Positions 2,147-51,979 of a DNA stretch of 64,000 nucleotides are shown piece after piece. Position 1 is the first letter of the stretch; each line of letters begins with the position of its first letter. A program made the position numbers and the translations under genes. Under the pieces are notes generated by a model that was not told the DNA's origin, searched no databases, and was given only the letters and a program-made list of their open reading frames with translations. Origin of the DNA: Albugo candida. Lineage: Eukaryota. The stretch lies in contig JBDOQK010000051.1 in NCBI GenBank assembly GCA_040437565.1, forward strand, positions 1-64,000. Reading direction: 5' to 3'.

Positions 2147-3514
2147 TCACCTTCCCATTCCGCCCACTTTGACATCTCCGTCCTTCCTGGACCAAATGGC
2201 ACCTCGCGTCGTATTAGAGCACGTCCGAGCACCTGCTTTGAAACCACATGCACTTGAATGAGAATTCGTACACCGGAAATCAACCGACTTTCTCGACTGA
2301 GGCGAGGAAGGATGGCCAGGTTTGGATGGAGATGAAAGGGGTAGAGCAGGAAGTCTCATCCCCAATTGACGCTCTAAAAGTCTTCGATTCTCAATACGCT
2401 CGATACTGTTGCAGAGCTCCGGTCTTCTCCCTACTTTCAGTCGATCATGTCTGAGTTTTTCAAGTAGTGCTTGCATCGCATCCATTGCTTCATCTGCCCA
2501 GACTTCAATAGCTCCCATTGGATGCGAGATTGAGGAGGTGTCTCCGTCCTTATCTAAAGCTCTTCTGGAAGCCATTTCCTCGATGCTTTGATTGAGAAAC
2601 ATCACAATCTCGTTCTTTTGAGCAAGCCAATATTCTCGCTCATCTTTTAATGCGATGAGTGCTGTTTCAACTTCTTTCAACTGTGACTGTGATTCTTTAT
2701 GGTCGATTACCGTCAAAACATTGGAATTTCTTTGAGTCTGATCGATCGGACTGATAGGATGCGCCTGTGTGAAAGCAGCTTTCTCATGCAAGTGAGCGAC
2801 CATTTTCTGTGAAAAAAACAGCTGTCTCGATATTTCTACTTCATTCAATTCCAAAACGCGTATTTGTTTCTTCCATTCTTGACTCTTCATCTCGAAATTT
2901 CGGATACAAAGTAAAAGCTTTTCTATCTCAAGCGATTGATACGTTATTTCTGCTTTCAACGACACGTTCTCTGCCAAAAGTTGTATCGGATCATTTTTCG
3001 ACTCTTTTGATACATTTGGAACAACGATATCAATCCGATGGTACTTGCGATTTCGAAAGCACAATTTCTCAATTGTGTGATCCAACTCGATTTTATTTTG
3101 ACAGTTTTGACGCATAAACTGATTTTCAAGGTCCTCCGTCCTCATGCACGCCATTTCCTTGTATTTCTCTATCCTCTCCACATCGGACATCAGCCTCTTG
3201 ATAAATCGATCACGATCTTCAGCCAACAGCTCGAGTTCCTTGACCTGATCTTCAAGTTTACATCTCGTTGTCTTCTGCTCCTCAATCACATATTCCAACT
3301 CGGAAATTCTTTCTTGCTGCTCGTCATGTTGTCGTTGGAAATACCCAAACAATTCTTCCTTGTCCTGAACAAGTATTTCAACCTGCTCCTTCATATCAGA
3401 ATTCGATGCGGCAAGCTGCTCATTCAAAAGTCGGACTTCTTCCCATTGCTTTTTTTGTACGGCGAGATCAAAATCAATCGATGTCGAAACACTCCTATCG
3501 GCAATTTTATCCAT
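2147..3514 (-). CDS. Coiled-coil hypothetical protein; may be spliced onward to coding sequence ending at 1718
   Basis: 455-aa ORF rich in E/Q/K/L heptads. Same-strand ORFs 2053-2283 and 1718-2089 and candidate GT-AG pairs suggest further 3' exons, but these were not resolved. Confidence 0.75.
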   Translation of the reverse strand: MDKIADRSVSTSIDFDLAVQKKQWEEVRLLNEQLAASNSDMKEQVEILVQDKEELFGYFQRQHDEQQERISELEYVIEEQKTTRCKLEDQVKELELLAEDRDRFIKRLMSDVERIEKYKEMACMRTEDLENQFMRQNCQNKIELDHTIEKLCFRNRKYHRIDIVVPNVSKESKNDPIQLLAENVSLKAEITYQSLEIEKLLLCIRNFEMKSQEWKKQIRVLELNEVEISRQLFFSQKMVAHLHEKAAFTQAHPISPIDQTQRNSNVLTVIDHKESQSQLKEVETALIALKDEREYWLAQKNEIVMFLNQSIEEMASRRALDKDGDTSSISHPMGAIEVWADEAMDAMQALLEKLRHDRLKVGRRPELCNSIERIENRRLLERQLGMRLPALPLSSPSKPGHPSSPQSRKSVDFRCTNSHSSACGFKAGARTCSNTTRGAIWSRKDGDVKVGGMGR

Positions 3515-3611
3515 TAATCCGTCCTCCCCACTCCCATTCGATCGTCCATTCTTCCAAAAAAGTCATATCACTCGCAGTCTTATTATCTGAAAATAGACTT
3601 CCACAAATACT

Positions 3612-6383: not shown

Positions 6384-7665
6384 ATGACGGTTCAAACTGC
6401 TTTGGGTTACGTCGCCCTCGTGTTAGCAATCCTCTTTTATGGTTCCTGCTACGTTCCGGCCAAGCGGTACCACACTTATGGTACATCCCACCCTATACAA
6501 AAACCTCCTTTCTGACTCGTGTGTTTGTGTAGACGGAATCATCTATCAATGGTTTATGTGCTCTGGTATTCTCATCACCGGTCTCGTGTGGGGACTCATC
6601 AGCAACGACTGGGTGCAATATGCGGAAGGAGGACTTTATGTATTTCCACAGGGCCTTTTAGGAGGCTCTTTATTCGCTATCGCCAATTTATTAATTCCCA
6701 CAGTGGTGAATACTTTAGGTCTAGGCGTAGGATTTATGTTATGGAACGGTATGAACATAACCATGGGGTACCTCATATCTCGATACGGGTTACTCGGGGT
6801 ACAATCCACGGTACCCCACCATCCTATTCTCGATACTTTTGGTATTCTGCTCATGATCGGTTCGATTGGCGTCTATGGCTTCATCCGACCGACACTAGCA
6901 ACCGATCCATCCGAAACATCCAATCTCTCCCAACCGCGCAAGGAACGCTCTCGTTCACGTCGATCGTATTCTAGCTCGGAAGGCTTTGATCTCGAAGACG
7001 ATAAATCCTCCAATAGCGTACCCCACACCAAATACACCATGAAACAAGCTCAAGATGAGACTTTCCAAGAAAGTCTCCTTCACCCTGAACTCCCTAATTA
7101 TGGCCCCTACGTCATTTCCGCCGATGTCTCCAAGCACATTGCTCTTATGGACGCCACCGCCAAACGAAAGCGCCAAATGGTCGGAACGGTATTGGCACTT
7201 GTTGTCGGAGCGATACTGAGCACATGTCTTATCCCATTCGTCCACTGGCAGCAAGATTGCGAGCCACACGATCGATCCAATGCAACTGTCATGGCGACCT
7301 GTAATCCCCTCAATTTCGTCTTCTCTCAATGTCTCGGCATCTACCTCACCAGTACCATTGCATTCCTCGTCTACTCCCTCTTCCATCGCTTTGTATGGCG
7401 TCGATCGATGCCGCGAAGTGTCATGAGACCCGCATACGTCTGCGGGGTCTTATGGGCGTTAGGCCTCACCGGTCAATTGTTTTCTGCGGGTGTCATTGGA
7501 TTCGATCAAGTCTACCCATTGTCGTCTATCGGCCCAGCAATCATCTCGATGCTTTGGTCGGCTTGTTACTTTAAAGAGATCCAAGGTCTTTTCAATCTTG
7601 TCATTCTCATCCTCGCAACGAGTATGGTGCTTTTGGGGACACTATTACGCGCGATCGCCGCTTGA
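6384..7665 (+). CDS. TMEM144: TMEM144 / DUF1632 (DMT superfamily) membrane transporter, 2 exons (6384-6480, 6533-7665), 409 aa
   Basis: A 52-nt intron GTACAT...CTGAC...TAG joins YGSCYVPAKRYHTY to DGIIYQWFMCSGIL in frame. Also has LGLGVG..LW, FVFSQCLGI, GP..ISMLWS..YFKEIQG and about 10 hydrophobic segments. Confidence 0.88.
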
Positions 7666-7714: not shown

Positions 7715-10700
7715 TCACGTATGGACACGTTCTTCTTCCTTGAGCATTGGTTCCTTTTTCAACTCCATTTCGACTTGCGGTTGGTTCGGTAGAGAAGCTT
7801 TTCGTGGTCGTTTGATTTTAATCGGATCACACTCACATGTGTTTTGCAGATGGATGAGAATACGATCATATTCCATGTCGTGTTTCCCAGTGGGAATTCC
7901 CATTCGCGCGTGAAGAAGCGTCTGCATCATTGAAAATGGCGTGCACAAATTCATCACAGGAGCACGCGGTCTCACTGCAACTGTCCAAATACGAATTCGA
8001 CCGTGACGATGCGGTAGAGGCTCCACGATCCTCTCGTCTTGATCCCGCGTGATTCCGACATTCCATCGGACCACATATCGTCTCGCGGATTTCTCAACGT
8101 CCAAACTCTTACACCGATGAAAGCTGAACACATTATCTTCGACAATCACATTGCCCGCGTGGTACATCAATCGAATTCCAAATTGCCCGTTGCAAGTGAT
8201 TTTATTCTGTTTGATGATCGCATGTCCTTCCATGATCACAATGCCTGCACGTCGATTCGAACAGATCGTATTGTGGCGAATGATCACCTGACATTCCGAC
8301 TTTGCTATGAAAATGCCTGTGGATCCATTCACAATGCGATTTTGCAACAGACACAATCGCGTCGGAGACGTATTTGGACCCCATACGCCGATACACGCGT
8401 TCCCGTGAAGCCCGTTATCGAAATCGCAATACATTACAACAAGTCGACCGGAAACGGAGACGAGATGTTGCCATGGAACAACACTCGTTGTATCGATTTC
8501 TGTTCTCCGTGTGAGATGGAAACCCTGGAGAAGACCGCCATTCGCACGCCAATACAATTGAGCGCGCGGGGAACGCATCACTATCTCGACATGCGCGTCG
8601 TGAGCGGCAATCAGACGGATAGGACGTGTGATGGTCAATGGTTTCTCGAGCTCGTAGACACCCGAAGCGAATATCAATGTGACGCCTATTGGAGCTGATG
8701 CAATCTCATGTTGCCACGCATCTGTGACGTGAATTCTCCGATTCAATTGCATGTTATTGGCCGCGGAATTCCACCAACGACACACGAGACGTACGGATTG
8801 AATACGATCAGGAAATGCATGGAGATACCGAAGAATTCCAAGCATTACGTGAGATGGAAGTCCTGCGTATCGATACGTCTGCGCGTGTTTCCATTGCTCC
8901 ATTTCAATGAGAATCGATGGAGGATCCCATACCGCTTGTTTGGTGTCGCTGTTGTAATAGAAGCGATGGTGTGTGTCTTTACATCGCATCAATTCCCACG
9001 CAGCGCCGGTCATTTGTCGTTTCCGACGCTCAAAATGCACATCCGATCGTTTCCGTTTAAACAATTCGCAATACGACTCGATTCCCTTCCGATCATCGAT
9101 TCCCGCAATCAGATCGCCTTGTGCGATCAATTGGGAATCTCTCAACGCTTTGGCTTGTTCCATACGTTCGATATCGCAATTCCGATCGTGTGCTTGCGTT
9201 TCCATTTCATTTTCGAGTGTTTGGAGACACATTGGTGTCATCGCTTTACGGAATGCCAACGCGTATCGATGGACGCGTGTCAATGCATTCTCCACACGTA
9301 TCAGTACATTGGCTTCCGTGTGCGTCTCATTCTTATCGGAATCGATACTTTCGTCTTGGAATTCCATTTCTTCTTCAAGCGCTTGCTCTTTTGCATCACG
9401 CATTGCAACCACATCGTCTTCGTCCTCGATTGTCGCCATGAACCGCTCGACCTCATCACTGCTGGGAGCGTGTACGTCATCGATATTCGATTCCTTCCCA
9501 TGGACCAATTGCCGGAGATTCGCCGCAGAGAAGAATTCCGTTGTAAAGTGTCCTTTGGTCATCACTAAAGTCTCGAGATTTCGCTTCTGTTGCGCTTTAC
9601 GGAGAATGTTTTCTTCGACGGTGGATTCAGTGACCAAACGATAGATATGCACCTCACGTGTTTGTCCGATACGATGTGCGCGATCTTGTGCCTGAGCATC
9701 CATTGCGGGATTCCAATCCGAGTCGTAAAAGATCACTGTGTCAGCGCCTGTGAGATTGATTCCAAGACCTCCACTTCGTGTGGACAGAATGAAGCAAAAA
9801 ATCGATGGATCATGGTTGAATTTCTCCATTAGCATCTGACGCTTCTCGACGCGTGTGCTTCCATCGAGTCGAAAGTATGTGTGCCTACAAAGAGCGTCAG
9901 GAAGAAGACGAAAGCCTGACAAAAGCCTTACCCGTGAAGGTTGAGAAATTGTTCCAATATATTAAGCATCGACGTCATTTGCGTAAAGATCAGACATCGA
10001 TGCTTCCCGCGACGTAATTGTCGCAATAATTGATCCAATTGTTGCAATTTTCCACAATCAAATTGGATCAATTTTTTGTCGGGAAAATTTAATTGCGTCC
10101 GTGAAAATATTTCGTCATACGGCTGCAACAATTTCTTTGCAATTGGATGCAGCGATTGTGTCTCTTTCCATTGACGTCGACGCTCCGAACGCATCAGTGA
10201 GCCTTTGTGTTTCTTCCCAAAATACTGAACCATTGGAACACGCGCGCGAGCTTTTGGGACCACACAAACGCCAAATGTACCGATGGATTCCGTCACTTTA
10301 CGAATTCTCTCTTCGGGCGATACGATAAGCGATCTCCATACGTCGCTTTGACGCTGCCAATGATCGATTTCCGACTTGGGATTCCATCGTGCTCGATGGA
10401 CTTGCATTGCGATTGAAATAAGGTTCGGCATCGATACAAGTCGTATTTGATCGTATCCAAACGCTGGCGGAAGACTCAATCGATGGAAATGGCGATAGAT
10501 CGCTTCGACAGATCGCTTCCTCTGGTTCCTATCTTCGTCCTCTGCGTAGACGATCCTCTCCATCCATTCCATTTCAACAGACTTTCTCGTGGATGCCACA
10601 TACAAATCTTCTACAAATAAATCATTTCGTCGGATCCAACGTTCCTTGGACTCTTCGATTTCCTTGTCGACGATATTCCCCGACATATACGGCATCTTCC

Positions 10701-13310
10701 ACTTGTGTCGCATCTTTACTATCCCCACACACCGACTCGGGAAACGTATCGACATCATTGGCATATCCAAAGGCGAGGCAATCGGACGAGCTTGGAATAA
10801 ATTCGGATGATTACATACTTTACGCAATTGCATCAAAATGTTCATAAGACTCAGAAAATTTCCATTCGAATGACTCATAGCATTCCGTGTCCAACTTTGA
10901 GCGAGAAAGCCTTCATACAAACTCTGTTGTCTTCGCGATAATTTGCATGGGATCACATGTTCCACTTTTCGTGGAAGCTGTTTCGCGACGTCTTTCTTCA
11001 GTCGTCGAAGCACAAATGGTCGAATAATTCCATGAAGCTGATCCACAAGCGCATTATCGACATCTTTGGCATCGGAGCCTTCGACCATCCCATTCAATGG
11101 CTGTTGGAACCAGTACGTAAACTCCTTACGTGATGCGAATAAATGCGGCATCAGGAAATGCATCAAAGCCCACAGCTCTAAAATATGATTCTGTAGCGGT
11201 GTTCCGGTCAGTAAAAGGCGACGTTGGGAATGGAGTGTCAGTAATGTTTGCCATCGAAGCGATTTCCAATTTTTGATGTGATGTGCTTCGTCCAAAATCA
11301 CATAATACCATTTCTTCCGTTTGAAACAATGAGCGTCCTGCACGACCAATTGATAGCTCGTCACGCACACATGGAACGTATTGGGCTTACTCCATCCTTG
11401 TCGAAGGAGTTTACGTCGTTTTGCGGAGCCAAAGTACGTGAGGATCTTAAAGGCCGGACACCAGCGCTTCAGTTCCATTTCCCAATTCACAAGACAGCTC
11501 GTAGGCACAATGATCAAATGAGGTCCCCATAAATGATGCTCACACGCTAAATGCGCGAGCAATGTGATCGTTTGAATTGTTTTTCCGAGTCCCATTTCAT
11601 CGGCTAAGATGCCGTTAATGCGCTTCTCACACATTCGAATGAGCCACGCGACACCAGCGACTTGGTATTCGCGGAGATCGAGACGAGTTGTCAGGAGAAA
11701 TGGACGTTCCAATGAGTGGTTGGACCATACGTTGACAGGCTCTGTTTCGAGAAGTTGCGCGCGTAGTTGGTCTATGGGAAGCTCACTTTCCGCTTGAAGC
11801 ATTTTGACCTCGAAAGCTTGCTCCTTTTCATCGATTTCGCCTTCGTCAGAGCTCCATGTAGACTCCTTATCGTCGTCACTATCCAGCACGTAATCGTCGT
11901 TGTCAGAGGCTGAAGAGCAAGTGGAATTGGAAGATGGACGTTCTTGAAAGGTTGCGGCTAACGCGGAAGCGTACTGTTCGGTCTGTTGGACTAAAGTCTT
12001 TAGCTGACGATCCATTACGGTCTTTCGTATCTGATCGGCGTGGACTTTGTGTTGGAATTGAACGAGCTTATCAATCTTGCTCCAGAACCGTTTGATATCG
12101 CGGGCAATACGACCTGCTACACGCCTTTGTGCTTCCATTTCGATCTTTTCTTTACGAGCTGTTTGAGTCGCTCGTTTGCGATGAAAAGTGAGCAATGACG
12201 TGCTTAGTGTTCGGGCTGTTTTGCCTTTCCATTTTTGTTCCTGAGCGAAATCAGCAGCCATCCATTCCATTTCCTGCATGAGGTAATCACGGTGGTATTG
12301 CCCGCGTTCAAGGAGCGGATTTTCGCCGAAACGGAGACGTTTACGGCCGAGAAGACGACGATTTCCCGGTGTGGTCTGAGGNNNNNNNNNNNNNNNNNNN
12401 NNNNNNNNNNNNNNNNNNNNNNNNNNNNNNNNNNNNNNNNNNNNNNNNNNNNNNNNNNNNNNNNNNNNNNNNNNNNNNNNNCGTGGACTTTGTGTTGGAA
12501 TTGAACGAGCTTATCAATCTTGCTCCAGAACCGTTTGATATCGCGGGCAATACGACCTGCTACACGCCTTTGTGCTTCCATTTCGATCTTTTCTTTACGA
12601 GCTGTTTGAGTCGCTCGTTTGCGATGAAAAGTGAGCAATGACGTGCTTAGTGTTCGGGCTGTTTTGCCTTTCCATTTTTGTTCCTGAGCGAAATCAGCAG
12701 CCATCCATTCCATTTCCTGCATGAGGTAATCACGGTGGTATTGCCCGCGTTCAAGGAGCGGATTTTCGCCGAAACGGAGACGTTTACGGCCGAGAAGACG
12801 ACGATTTCCCGGTGTGGTCTGAGGATGTGATTGTTCTGTAAGCGCGCATTGCGGCGATTTCGCGGCGATACTGTCGGTCAAAGGCTTGTGAATGTCGTTG
12901 TGTATGGCTGAGGAAGGAGTGGTGCAAGTGCCAAGTGTCAATTCATTGAGACGAGTGAGAATTTGAGCTTTTCGTTGGGTCCAATGAGCCTGAAGATCGC
13001 ATACGGATGCTTTGGAAGGCGATTGTAGCGTGAAGGACGATGTTTCAGTGGCGATAGAGGAGAGGAGAGGACGATGGGGATGCTGGGGAGCGGATAGAGT
13101 GGTTTTGGAGGTGAGAGGGATGCGTATTGGCGTGTCAGATGCGAGTTTTGGGGACTCGGGAGATGGAATTTGACTTTTTTCGGCAATTGGAGTGCTTTCT
13201 GAAGCGTTTGAGAGCTTACGTTTATTTCTGCGACTTTGTCGACGATTAGGCAATCCTTTTGAGCTTTTTTTCGGATCGGAAGGAGCTTTGGAAGTTGCAG
13301 AATGCGGCAT
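7715..13310 (-). CDS. SWR1: SWR1/SRCAP/Domino-type Snf2 chromatin-remodelling ATPase with C-terminal WW, F-box and parallel beta-helix domains (~1700 aa after removing the false gap duplication)
   Basis: HSA-like region (EMEWMAADFAQEQKWK), GILADEMGLGKT, DEAH, TGTP, QLRKVCNHP, split-ATPase insertion, LIQFDCGKLQ, STRSGGLGINL, DSDWNP, QAQDRAHRIGQ. A 47-nt intron at 9885-9931 (GTAAGG...CTGAC...TAG) joins the two ORFs in frame. First in-frame ATG is 13310; an upstream exon is not excluded. Confidence 0.92.
12382..12481. other. Spurious scaffold gap with duplicated flanks
   Basis: 12039-12381 is repeated at 12482-12824 (343 bp). Collapsing the repeat restores one SWR1 reading frame. Confidence 0.92.
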
Positions 13311-13859: not shown

Positions 13860-14625
13860 TTAAATGAACGGGATACCGCTCACAGTGCGTCGCTTATACT
13901 CTGGGTACTCTTTGGGGAACAACACCATCAACGTCTCTTCCTCGTAAGGTATCCGGTCTTTAAAAAAGCCCCAAGACAACGCAATGTATAGAACGAAACA
14001 GATGGGATTTAAAAGAACGATTTGAGTGGCAATGCTCCAATAAAACCATCCCAGGTACGATGGGTGACGTACAAAGCGATACATCCCACTTGTGACCAGA
14101 AAATGATCGTCACGCTTTGAGAATTCAATTGTATGCGAAAAGTTGGAAGCTGCGGAAATCATCGCTGCAGTGCGACATGATTGGCCAAAAAGCAATAGGA
14201 TAAAACCACCAATGAGACAGTTGCGTTGAAATTCGTTTCCTTGCCGCTTATATGGAAAAATAGAGTATTCCACCCAAAATTCCAGACAGCTCGCGAAGAG
14301 AGCCAAATGATACGCTTGACTATGGTCCAGTATAAAGGCTATAACAGAATTGTCCTAGTTATATATCAGGATAACAGCAATTGGATGGCTCACATTCAAA
14401 CGACACGGTTGTTGGACGATAGGAAGCGGTCACAAGGAACTCTGTGAAATGGAAGAAACAGAGCGCAATCGCGTATATGGACCAACTGAGGATAACATAG
14501 TTTTCGGTATAGATGCAATAGAGTGATAGTGCAATGTGAAGAGCCATCAGAAAGCCCAAAAAGAATGCCGCAAGTGCCGTGCGACCCAAACCTGTGGCCG
14601 ATGTGAATTGCACGGATTGAAACAT
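13860..14625 (-). CDS. ICMT: Isoprenylcysteine carboxyl methyltransferase, 2 exons (14625-14394, 14338-13860), 236 aa
   Basis: A 55-nt intron GTGAGC...TAG gives FHFTEFLVTA...VSFESFILDHS. Also has NFSH, LVTSGMYRFVRHPSYLGWFYW, NPI, FFKDRIPYEE and GIPFI. Confidence 0.93.
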
Positions 14626-50782: not shown

Positions 50783-51979
50783 ATGCCACCCTTCAGTATA
50801 TGGGCACTATTTCTGACCGCTTTGATGTCTATGGAGTCACCCAGCCAAATCATTGCTCTATCTGGAATCTTCAACGTGTCGTCTCAGAAACCAGGAGACT
50901 TTACTAGGTGTCATGAGTGCCTCGTATCCACTTTGGGTAGTGCGCAAATACATTTGCTTGCAACAAAAAGCGCCTTCAGACTCTATTGGATTTATGGATA
51001 TTCAAATATAAGAAGAGCGTTTCTCTTATTGCGAAAGAAAGGAGGTATGTTATCTAACAAATCATTTGGAGCAAACATACAGGCGCGGTACCTCAATAAG
51101 TATCCACAGATACAGAAAATATCCAAATAAAGGAATCGGCATTCATTCATTGGCGATCGCGATGGATGAAGAATTAGGGAGGGAGTTAGCTAGGTACACA
51201 GCTACAAGAGCCTCCAAATACGACCCATCATCACTGATTTGGAAATAAAAGGTTGAAATTCCAGTCTTCTTTTGGAAGGACTACTCAATCAGAGATGAAA
51301 CACTTCTTGTACATTCTCAGGAAACACNNNNNNNNNNNNNNNNNNNNNNNNNNNNNNNNNNNNNNNNNNNNNNNNNNNNNNNNNNNNNNNNNNNNNNNNN
51401 NNNNNNNNNNNNNNNNNNNNNNNNNNNAGAAAATGTAGTAGGATACAAGCGGTTCCCTTGAAATTCTGTTCTATTCACCGAGCGTTCACGGTTACGCAAT
51501 CACGTAGACGAAATAAAGTGATCGAATTTAACCAGAATCTGAATTCGGTAGGTGTTTGGCCTCCCCTACAGCACCAGATTGAAGAAAACATGAATGGGCT
51601 CAAGTCACCAACGAGCCCGCTGTCTCCTTTCGCAGCGACAGATAGCCCACAAATCTGGCCAGCGTCAAACAACATCGCTCTCGTGGAGATCAAATTCGCG
51701 GATTCTAGATCGTATGATTGTTTGAATTGCCTAGCGGAGCATACAGAGCTTTTCTTCTTTTACAGAAGCGAAGTCGAACGTAGTGGATACGTTTGGATGC
51801 GTCCCGTTCTATTAACCATCCTATCTTCCTGCGTTGGGATGCATTGCTCAAGCCTCTCTTATAATGAAAATGGAATGCAAATGAGACGTCCCGTAGGACT
51901 GCCGCCAGTGACGACTATAGATATTATATTGTCACTTGTGATGTTTAATAAACGTAATACAAAGGCACCACACACATAG
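50783..51979 (+). pseudogene. CCG effector paralog 3, disrupted; middle part lies in gap 51328-51427
   Basis: Signal peptide plus CHECLVSTLG. Has a 2-nt deletion near 51025 relative to paralog 2 and an in-frame TAA at 51246-51248 (GAA in paralog 2). The 3' part is nearly identical to paralog 2. Confidence 0.82.

Follow-up and report, generated by a model that had tools for sequence, protein, structure and literature searches.

An ATPase of the SWR1/SRCAP type is continued in Albugo candida, in frame and within a single gene, by a C-terminal module consisting of a WW domain, an F-box and a right-handed parallel beta-helix. This fusion is almost certainly real and ancient; it is neither a peculiarity of Albugo nor a gene-model artefact. 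The whole account that we favour, in which one gene carrying this ancient fusion would give an SCF ubiquitin ligase its substrate receptor, appears to us evenly poised between right and wrong. The features of the gene are collected in Table 1, with positions counted along the window, that is, the whole stretch of 64,000 nucleotides that was analysed.

Table 1. Features of the Albugo candida gene encoding the SWR1/SRCAP-type ATPase with its C-terminal module
Feature	Position in the window	Strand	Basis
Whole gene, SWR1/SRCAP-type ATPase with C-terminal WW, F-box and beta-helix	7715..13310	-	1701 aa with the assembly duplication collapsed; start MPHSATSKAP at 13310
Exon 1: N-terminus, HSA, ATPase N-lobe, inter-lobe insert, start of C-lobe	9932..13310	-
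Assembly gap, 100 N, within exon 1	12382..12481	.	flanks duplicated
HSA domain (aa 190-249)	12121..12300	-	Pfam HSA 37.9 bits, cut-off 23
SNF2 ATPase N-lobe (aa 401-690)	10798..11667	-	Pfam SNF2-rel_dom 280.3 bits
Inter-lobe insert, ~250 aa (aa 691-939)	10051..10797	-	space between Pfam domains and continuous Swr1 alignment
Helicase C-lobe (aa 940-1052), split by the intron	9665..10050	-	Pfam Helicase_C 89.8 bits, 1701-aa protein
Only intron, 47 nt, GT..AG, phase 2	9885..9931	-	junction agrees with P0166 and P0167
Exon 2: remaining C-lobe, Swr1-like tail, linker, WW, F-box, beta-helix, basic tail, stop	7715..9884	-
Post-helicase tail, homologous to Swr1/SRCAP up to aa 1165	9326..9664	-	PDB matches
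WW domain, W..FYYN.DT....W..P	8918..8998	-	Pfam WW 18.0 bits, cut-off 26.9
F-box (GLPSHVMLGILRYL...VRLVCRWWN)	8729..8863	-	Pfam F-box-like (PF12937) 30.4 bits, cut-off 24.3
Right-handed parallel beta-helix, ~230 aa	8045..8728	-	Pfam Beta_helix 39.0 bits (cut-off 25.9), NosD 32.9 bits (cut-off 23.6)
Low-confidence C-terminal tail, KIKRPRK motif, stop 7715-7717	7715..8044	-	pLDDT <55 past module residue 340

The gene is read on the minus strand from 13310 to 7715 and has one intron; its spliced product of 1701 aa agrees with the preliminary description, which had foreseen a protein of about 1700 aa with the ATPase fused in frame to a WW, F-box and beta-helix module. When the public A. candida model CCI10683.1 (P0166) was aligned with the window by tblastn, its residues 1–276 fell at 13310–12483, residues 163–979 at 12381–9931 and residues 980–1701 at 9883–7718. 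The start of exon 2 at 9884 is correct, and the splice joins ...LNLHG to HTYFRLDG exactly as in the 1701-aa CCI10683.1. The flanks of the gap in exon 1 repeat each other (12482–12824 and 12039–12381, identical at 343/343 bases), and the residues concerned are present once in the public protein; the duplication is a scaffolding artefact and lies outside the true gene. The locus is prone to faulty gene models, the upstream ICMT gene having been merged into one public model.

By its sequence, the ATPase half is of the SWR1/SRCAP type, as had been proposed from the letters of the DNA. The full protein scored 821.6 bits against SRCAP and 676.9 against Swr1 in the PDB, ahead of p400 (506.5) and INO80 (481), an HSA domain is present and the two lobes are separated by an insert of 250 aa. 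A long insert between the ATPase lobes is a hallmark of Swr1/Ino80-type enzymes. The solved chain of yeast Swr1 could be aligned continuously through this insert, with query residues 386–1165 on chain residues 684–1483, and had no match beyond aa 1165; when the exon ORF served as query, SRCAP reached residue 245 and Swr1 residue 212. Helicase_C was recognized at 66.2 bits even on the exon-2 frame alone (cut-off 23.5). From this orthology, the Albugo enzyme would be expected to exchange H2A for H2A.Z.

The first domain of the module (WELMRC...FYYNSDTKQAVWDPP) has the two tryptophans about 20–23 residues apart, the aromatic-aromatic-Asn core and the closing proline of a WW domain. In A. candida it scored 18.0 and 17.6 bits with Pfam WW, under the cut-off of 26.9, and in the orthologues P0056 (28.0), P0039 (27.7), P0052 (27.2) and P0042 (28.5 bits) it scored above it. 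Searched against the PDB, profile A1 found the WW domain of PRPF40A (E 1.5e-8) and yeast Prp40 (E 1.2e-6). Across 30 sequences, no variation is seen at W23, N38, T41 and P49 (module numbering) and very little at D40 and W46, and AlphaFold2 predicts strands at 23–27 and 34–38 with pLDDT above 90.

The preliminary description had suggested that profile searches and AlphaFold be used to verify the F-box and the beta-helix, and both bear them out: F-box-like, Beta_helix and NosD all exceeded the Pfam curated cut-offs, and AlphaFold2 folded the module confidently (mean pLDDT 81.0, pTM 0.70, 245/449 residues at 90 or above). In the predicted structure, the F-box forms three helices (71–78, 83–93 and 96–102) and the beta-helix begins at residue 109, with strands over 109–338 mostly above pLDDT 90; blocks of 10 residues have pLDDT 84–97 over module residues 61–190. 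Profile A1 also matched the F-box of Skp2 (E 0.0011). Between two Albugo species, identity amounts to 80% in the WW domain, 64% in the F-box and 66% in the beta-helix, as against 47–53% in the linkers. The basic KIKRPRK motif of the tail, which aligns with KKVKKPRR in P0022, is probably a nuclear localisation signal.

The module might nevertheless be a docking appendage to proteins or chromatin with no role in ubiquitination. The F-box-like helices would then be only a linker, while the WW domain and the beta-helix would recruit partners or a modified or glycosylated ligand, standing in for the C-terminal SANT/Myb domain or AT-hooks of other SWR1 orthologues. This would suit the F-box scores, which are modest across members (21.5–38.5 bits, some of them under 24.3); in one scan, the F-box-like cut-off was reached by four of five full-length members, Chrysoparadoxa giving 23.7 bits. 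It would likewise suit the beta-helix matches in the PDB, which are carbohydrate-active enzymes and tailspikes. The top Foldseek matches of the module were tailspikes and PL6 lyases (E at least 2.6e-4, TM-scores at most 0.37), that is, generic beta-helices that say nothing about a ligand, and no F-box/beta-helix structure was among them. Furthermore, a Myb/SANT-type Pfam domain (PF13921 or PF00249) takes the place of the module in some orthologues among those listed from plants, amoebozoans and rhizarians. However, the signature of the F-box, with its Leu-Pro, its hydrophobic ladder and module residues C95 and W98, is invariant or nearly so in distant members, and most of the members scanned pass the Pfam cut-off. 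On balance we regard a pure docking role as unlikely.

A more radical objection is that annotation or assembly has brought a SWR1 ATPase and a neighbouring F-box gene into one frame by accident or by reading through. The errors in gene models at this locus could be cited in its favour. Besides the ICMT merger, one P. infestans annotation breaks the locus into models of 1393 and 547 aa, the former keeping the ATPase, the WW domain, the F-box and the first rungs of the beta-helix. So could the nature of the Albugo sequence runs: the nine that were found are all of unknown or guessed kind, and none is recorded as RNA. The letters of the window speak otherwise. The minus-strand frame 7715–9961 is free of stops over 748 codons and holds the helicase C-lobe together with the WW, F-box and beta-helix motifs; the preliminary description had placed these motifs after the C-lobe in the same exon, and all those that it quoted were found in the translations where it had located them. 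About 610 more sense codons follow the helicase lobe without a stop, for which the probability by chance, computed with the base composition of the exon itself, is about 2e-14. A chance open frame is therefore excluded, the more so since the module is also kept across orders.

Other sequences of the species agree. All 722 residues of exon 2 are colinear and ungapped in two independent public A. candida models. Four of the nine runs were compared with the locus, as contigs. Those of X1, X3 and X6, which come from two studies and may include the source sample of the window itself, span 7715–9884 with no indel and a single substitution, 8502 G>C (Thr to Arg). X1 and X6 each yielded one contig over 6581/6583–12300 with the intron retained, and X5 short pieces at low depth. 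X3 yielded two contigs, ending at 9885 and 9931, the borders of the intron; because this is one run from one study, we draw from these ends no conclusion as to splicing or a single transcript. A single mRNA carrying both ATPase and module is represented by the transcriptome ORF P0202 (2204 aa), which is marked complete. The same domain order recurs in independently assembled genomes from no fewer than four orders of oomycetes and three classes of ochrophytes; together with this recurrence, the complete ORF argues against an artefact, as does the linker between the post-helicase tail and the WW domain, which can itself be aligned between diatom-like and oomycete sequences. An accidental joining is thus extremely improbable.

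Comparison of SWR1 orthologues across oomycetes and other stramenopiles, another step that had been suggested at the outset, recovered the same domain order in Peronosporales, Pythiales, Saprolegniales, diatoms, chrysophytes and Chrysoparadoxa. The long matches to the module, 17 out of 17, are oomycete SNF2 proteins of 1623–2626 aa, and precomputed Pfam assignments give F-box-like in 16/17 of them and Beta_helix in 16/17. Further carriers of the module come from Saprolegnia, Aphanomyces, Achlya, Thraustotheca and Chrysoparadoxa, as well as from Thalassiosira, Cyclostephanos, Cyclotella, Epipyxis and Ochromonadaceae. Altogether, the WW/F-box part is present in 87 of the 168 compared proteins with a Swr1-type ATPase. 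The preliminary description had stated that Swr1 and PIE1 are devoid of the module, and the comparison supports this: it is absent from the plant (PIE1), green-algal and amoebozoan SWR1 orthologues among the best 120 of 4857 matches, and the match to the solved Swr1 chain ends where the homologous tail does, at aa 1165. One rhizarian orthologue that was examined, from Norrisiella, also lacks it.

The phylogeny of the ATPase agrees with an ancient fusion. In a tree of 88 ATPase regions, built with FastTree alone after removal of 41 unlabelled non-carrier rows, 59 of the 61 carriers fall within one group of 61 members (support 92), and the carrier state requires 3 label changes as compared with 23.6 in shuffles. 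The two remaining carriers, P0293 and P0135, have long branches and are placed outside this group. On our reading, the WW domain, F-box and beta-helix were joined to the SWR1-type ATPase in a common ancestor of oomycetes and ochrophytes and have been retained since.

No second, module-free SWR1 of oomycetes was found among the best 120 of 4857 matches, a range that a divergent paralogue of lower score could escape. The oomycete proteins in that range all bear the module apart from three truncated models: P0210 (979 aa) comprises exon 1 only, P0213 (1558 aa) stops within the WW/F-box region, and P0221 (1568 aa) has an ATPase at zero branch distance from that of the carrier P0227. Similarly, some representatives, P0036 and P0058 for example, had the appearance of stand-alone WW/F-box/beta-helix proteins; they were not accepted as pointing to a free-standing gene, because their 90% clusters contain ATPase-bearing members of 2097 and 1434 aa.

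What such a protein might do can be proposed from its domains. The predicted F-box would dock SKP1, and through it CUL1–RBX1, so that the remodeller itself would act as an SCF substrate receptor at the nucleosomes on which it works; SKP1 binding and ligase activity are both what an F-box module of this kind would lead one to expect. The beta-helix, which follows the F-box directly as in receptors of the FBXO11 type, would hold the substrate. The WW domain, being like those of PRP40 and FBP11, may read a proline-rich or phospho-Ser-Pro partner, for example the tail of RNA polymerase II, and the binding of this partner would position the ligase or control its activity; analogy with the PRP40, FBP11 and TCERG1 relatives is what suggests a ligand of the proline-rich or phospho-CTD class. 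It is tempting to go further and to picture the stramenopile SWR1 complex as an SCF ligase that marks a histone or a histone-bound factor at the remodelled nucleosome, thereby coupling exchange to ubiquitination or degradation. Among the candidate targets would be the evicted H2A–H2B dimer, H2A.Z, or some protein associated with the polymerase and recognized by the WW domain. We consider this extension decidedly unlikely, and we know of no model organism with such a SWR1–SCF arrangement.

Alternatively, the predicted binding of SKP1 by the F-box may serve to control the remodeller itself. Self-ubiquitination by SCF would set the abundance of SWR1, or else SKP1 would be a structural subunit without ligase function; in either case other chromatin proteins would not be targeted. 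The canonical F-box sequence serves this explanation equally well. Indeed, turnover of an F-box protein by the SCF to which it belongs is common, and cullin-free Skp1 complexes exist, such as RAVE and Ctf13/CBF3 in yeast. Self-control does not, however, account readily for the conserved and well-folded domain of about 230 aa that follows the F-box, in the usual position for substrate binding and with two thirds of its residues identical between Albugo species; such a domain would be superfluous for mere self-destruction. We look upon self-control as somewhat unlikely.

The preliminary description had left undecided whether such a protein had been reported in oomycetes. Database entries, among them one from Phytophthora infestans T30-4, already carry the fusion in their title, 'SNF2 family helicase/ATPase and F-box protein, putative', and no paper on it was found in the full-text literature, where the search, which did not extend to supplementary domain-architecture tables, returned only plant-side or unrelated work. 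In a brown-alga preprint (10.1101/2024.02.19.579948), the passages on SNF2 are silent on the fusion.

The retention of the module on SWR1 concerns both oomycetes, which include major pathogens of crops and fish, and diatoms and golden algae, which are major primary producers. It points to a tie, lineage-wide and unstudied, that would join the SCF ubiquitin system to the exchange of histone variants. SWR1 is among the most conserved chromatin machines. To our knowledge, work on its catalytic subunit has been confined almost entirely to yeast, animals and plants, and in these the subunit includes no ubiquitin-ligase part. The module also provides a clean synapomorphy of the group formed by oomycetes and ochrophytes. 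Finally, it carries a warning for annotation pipelines, which label such proteins PIE1 or p400 and at times split or merge them.

Known systems resemble the Albugo protein piece by piece. With Swr1 of yeast, SRCAP of human and PIE1 of plants it has in common the HSA domain, the SNF2 N-lobe, the insert of about 250 aa, Helicase_C and the post-helicase tail, and it differs from them in having a WW domain, an F-box and a beta-helix at its C-terminus. The WW domains of PRP40, FBP11 (PRPF40A) and TCERG1 are the best solved matches and share the YYN.[DE]T...W..P core; here, by contrast, a lone WW domain stands immediately N-terminal to an F-box. Precedents exist for the joining of a DNA-dependent ATPase to ubiquitin ligation: Rad5/HLTF, Rad16 and SHPRH are SNF2 ATPases with a RING E3 between their lobes, and FBH1/FBXO18 has an F-box on a UvrD-type helicase. 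As far as we know, none of these is a histone-exchange enzyme of the SWR1 type or possesses a receptor domain built as a beta-helix.

FBXO11 and FBXO10 are SCF substrate receptors of animals with CASH/PbH1 beta-helices, and FBXO11 has three CASH units and a C-terminal zinc finger of the UBR type. The term 'FBXO11-like' used in the preliminary description is apt in so far as an F-box is directly followed by a right-handed beta-helix of the PbH1 type (F-box-like, Beta_helix, NosD). It goes too far in other respects: the Albugo protein has a single short beta-helix of about 230 aa, seen by Pfam as one Beta_helix stretch, no UBR zinc finger was among its Pfam matches at E up to 1 (exon) or 0.01 (full protein), and a WW domain and the fusion to a remodeller are added. 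The resemblance, so far as it is seen, is one of layout. A cluster named 'F-box only protein 11' with the same three families did appear as a language-model neighbour (score 0.90, rank 11), which is a lead only, and nine of the multi-stretch beta-helix matches among the 150 representatives listed proved, when scanned, to be bacterial-type proteins without an F-box. The nearest named neighbours by language-model features, as distinct from alignment, are clusters whose automatic names are 'F-box protein SKIP5' (0.95) and, in chlorophytes, 'Right handed beta helix region/F-box' (0.94). Unlike the Albugo protein, the members of these clusters are small and free-standing, with representatives of 262 and 698 aa, and have no ATPase. 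Such stand-alone F-box and beta-helix proteins of plants and algae are plausible kin of the gene that became joined to SWR1.

On the minus strand, 9961-7715 is a stop-free frame of 748 codons. A 47-nt intron with GT..AG borders occupies 9885-9931, and the first 25 codons of the frame are read-through of this intron; this leaves 9884-7715 as the last exon, precisely the interval to which the preliminary description had assigned the fusion. A second long frame upstream, 9928-12510, extends the SWR1 gene to an ATG at 13310. An assembly gap of 100 N (12382-12481) lies within this upstream part; the whole window holds 500 N, the last at 51427. The flanks of the gap are identical over 343 bases (12482-12824 = 12039-12381), and a naive translation across it consequently repeats ~114 residues around the HSA domain. 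Since the flanks are identical and the public A. candida protein P0166 has the corresponding residues once only, the duplication is a scaffolding artefact. The exon ORF matches a protein cluster at 99% identity; the cluster's named members, both from A. candida, the species of the window, are P0166 and P0167. The former is colinear with the window at 13310-12483, 12381-9931 and 9883-7718; the latter has the same last 722 residues, its model erroneously joining the upstream ICMT gene to the SWR1 gene. The stop-to-stop frames of the SWR1 gene and the TMEM144-like gene end only 50 bases apart (7715 and 7665), so that their 3′ UTRs probably overlap.

Domains of the 1701-aa protein, public A. candida models and neighbouring genes in the window
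Feature	Position	Strand	Evidence or remark
HSA	aa 190-249		Pfam, 37.9 bits
SNF2-related	aa 401-690		Pfam, 280.3 bits
Helicase_C	aa 940-1052		Pfam, 89.8 bits
WW	aa 1275-1301		Pfam, 17.6 bits, under the cut-off of 26.9
F-box-like	aa 1320-1364		Pfam, 30.5 bits (cut-off 24.3)
Beta_helix	aa 1481-1580		Pfam, 36.7 bits (cut-off 25.9)
NosD			Pfam, 30.4 bits (cut-off 23.6)
P0166 (CCI10683.1)			A. candida, 1701 aa
P0167 (KAL0584053.1)			A. candida, 2024 aa
Isoprenylcysteine carboxyl methyltransferase	13878-14625	-	Pfam ICMT, 100 bits; upstream neighbour, same strand as SWR1 gene
TMEM144-family transporter-like gene	6427-7665	+	165.6 bits; converges on SWR1 gene
Alpha-kinase domain frame, 788 codons	3612-5978	-	168.8 bits; domain follows Ser/Thr-rich N-terminal half
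471-codon frame	2147-3562	-	no Pfam match; adjoins Alpha-kinase frame

Judged by its sequence, the ATPase belongs to the SWR1 type. Among solved structures it matches SRCAP best (821.6 bits), followed by yeast Swr1 (676.9), p400 (506.5) and INO80 (481), the yeast Swr1 match being a single alignment that spans aa 386-1165 and takes in the 250-aa insert between the lobes; membership in the Swr1/SRCAP/PIE1 subfamily follows from the presence of all four sequence features tested. A Pfam scan of the last exon alone agrees with that of the whole protein. The WW assignment appears weak in Albugo and sound for the family: orthologues exceed the Pfam cut-off (P0056, 28.0; P0039, 27.7; P0052, 27.2; P0042, 28.5 bits), and W23, N38, T41 and P49 of the module do not vary across a 30-sequence alignment, in which D40 and W46 are almost constant. 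A profile built from 16 module sequences matches the WW domains of PRPF40A (E 1.5e-8) and Prp40 (E 1.2e-6) as well as the Skp2 F-box (E 0.0011).

The F-box is canonical and is directly followed by a folded repeat domain. AlphaFold2, run on exon-ORF residues 300-748 and supplied with the 30-sequence alignment, returned a model of mean pLDDT 81.0 and pTM 0.70. In it a helix leads into the WW strands (23-27 and 34-38); after a long helix come the three helices of the F-box (71-78, 83-93 and 96-102) and then a beta-helix (109 to ~338). Up to residue 320 most 10-residue blocks have a pLDDT of 84-98, with one at 71; values drop to 77-82 by residue 340 and are below 55 over the final ~110 residues. 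Foldseek searches of the PDB returned solely generic right-handed beta-helices with TM-scores of at most 0.37, among them a phage tailspike (E 2.6e-4), PL6 alginate lyases and AlgG, matches that confirm the fold and are uninformative on the ligand.

Are the two halves one gene? By the exon's own composition, the chance of ~610 sense codons past the helicase lobe is ~2e-14, and contigs from three public sequencing runs (two studies), which may include the source sample, span 7715-9884 with no indels and one substitution. The comparative evidence is a stronger argument than either. The in-frame joining of SWR1, WW, F-box and beta-helix that had been proposed recurs in the same order in other stramenopile orders, including one transcriptome ORF marked as complete, P0202 (2204 aa), where the ATPase ends at 1479 and is followed by WW/F-box (1849-1942) and beta-helix (1943-2157); in that organism, accordingly, both halves are on one mRNA. 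Likewise, the 1393-aa piece of a split P. infestans annotation keeps the ATPase, WW, F-box and first beta-helix rungs. That the fusion is an artefact is very unlikely. Short proteins with an apparently free module were fragments where checked, the P0036 and P0058 clusters containing ATPase-bearing members of 2097 and 1434 aa.

Compared with the window, all three runs show 7162 A>G and 8502 G>C, probably strain differences; the second substitution, which lies in the beta-helix, replaces Thr with Arg. In run X3, two contigs end exactly at the intron borders 9885 and 9931 (mean word depth 461 versus 72); those of X1, from the same study, and of X6 continue through the intron.

Searched against long proteins, the module alone gave 17 matches, all oomycete SNF2 proteins of 1623-2626 aa. 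They come from Albugo laibachii (67% identical), Globisporangium, Pythium, Nothophytophthora and one further record, and include eleven Phytophthora, Peronospora or Hyaloperonospora species; precomputed Pfam lists F-box-like in 16 and Beta_helix in 16 of the 17. In an exhaustive search of representatives, 356 proteins matched at E <=1e-3, 61 of them at E <=1e-10, and the 150 best matches were listed; 46 of the 165 proteins then collected also match the window's ATPase exon. Named oomycete carriers beyond Peronosporales and Albuginales are Saprolegnia parasitica, S. diclina, four Aphanomyces species, Achlya and Thraustotheca, and named ochrophyte carriers are Chrysoparadoxa australica, Thalassiosira exigua, Cyclostephanos tholiformis, Cyclotella cryptica, Epipyxis sp. 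and an Ochromonadaceae strain. A Swr1-type ATPase is present in 168 of 308 collected proteins: 87 have WW/F-box (84 with beta-helix too) and 81 have neither. The latter include plant PIE1s, green algae, Balamuthia, Planoprotostelium, Protostelium, Echinamoeba, an ostracod and the rhizarian Norrisiella, several of which bear Myb/SANT-type domains in place of the module.

In a FastTree phylogeny of the ATPase region (88 rows, from 135 eligible minus six alternate models and 41 unlabelled non-carriers), a group of 61 with a support of 92 contains 59 of the 61 carriers, its other two members being the non-carriers P0221 and P0240, both truncated models. The carrier label changes three times, against a mean of 23.6 when shuffled. 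Although the tree is quick and unrooted, we read this as a single gain of the module in a common ancestor of oomycetes and ochrophytes. No second, plain SWR1 was seen in oomycetes, since every oomycete entry among the best 120 of 4857 ATPase-region matches either carries the module or comes from a truncated model.

The long-branch carriers P0293 and P0135 lie in an unresolved position next to non-carriers. P0293 (eukprot g4239.t1, 2080 aa), outside the main carrier group, also has PF09465, presumably a Tudor-type domain, in its precomputed Pfam list. Peronosporales orthologues (2200-2600 aa, versus 1701 in Albugo) have an apparent beta-helix insert of ~150-250 aa that Albugo lacks; in P. infestans P0015 (insert ~1817-1990) profile matches cover 1665-1744 and 1769-1817 and Pfam Beta_helix covers 1990-2076. 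Other Phytophthora and Peronospora orthologues seem to have a similar interruption, and one P. infestans annotation breaks the gene at about this insert.

Co-occurrence of SNF2 and F-box is already visible in public annotation, as 'SNF2 family helicase/ATPase and F-box protein' (P. infestans T30-4, P. cinnamomi, Achlya, Thraustotheca, Globisporangium) or 'ATPase and F-box protein' (P. megakarya); other pipelines label the same proteins PIE1 or p400. A full-text literature search, covering main article texts, found no paper on the fusion. Nor did we find it stated elsewhere that this protein is the lineage's SWR1 orthologue, that WW and beta-helix are parts of the module, or that the module is common to oomycetes and ochrophytes.

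Between A. candida and A. laibachii, the WW (80% identity), F-box (64%) and beta-helix (66%) compare with 47-53% for the flanking linkers and 92-93% for the ATPase lobes, and the module is alignable as far as a diatom. The F-box would bind SKP1 and thereby CUL1-RBX1, the beta-helix may hold the substrate, and the WW may read a proline-rich or phospho-CTD partner. The nearest relatives of the WW in profile matches are the PRP40/FBP11/TCERG1 domains, which bind such ligands. This substrate-receptor model, SKP1 recruitment included, is the one we favour, giving it as a whole an even chance. Two live rivals, each less probable, are that the protein regulates itself through SKP1 and, with a slightly lower probability again, that the module has a docking role independent of any ligase.

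In sequence and predicted fold the protein belongs with F-box proteins, and an F-box followed by a folded repeat domain, the standard layout of SCF substrate receptors, is the order found on this ATPase. The layout is also that of FBXO11/FBXO10, and to this extent the label 'FBXO11-like' holds. These proteins are further defined by three CASH units and a UBR zinc finger; the former do not apply here (Pfam, AlphaFold2), and Pfam scans gave no match to the latter. A hint of kinship comes from protein neighbours in feature space, where a plant 'SKIP5' cluster (0.95) and a chlorophyte F-box/beta-helix cluster (0.94) are nearer than FBXO11 (0.90). With both features failing and these clusters nearer, we do not file the module as FBXO11-like beyond architecture. 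ATPases coupled to ubiquitin ligation have precedents in the RING-bearing SNF2 enzymes Rad5/HLTF, Rad16 and SHPRH and in the F-box helicase FBH1, none of which is, to our knowledge, a histone-exchange enzyme.
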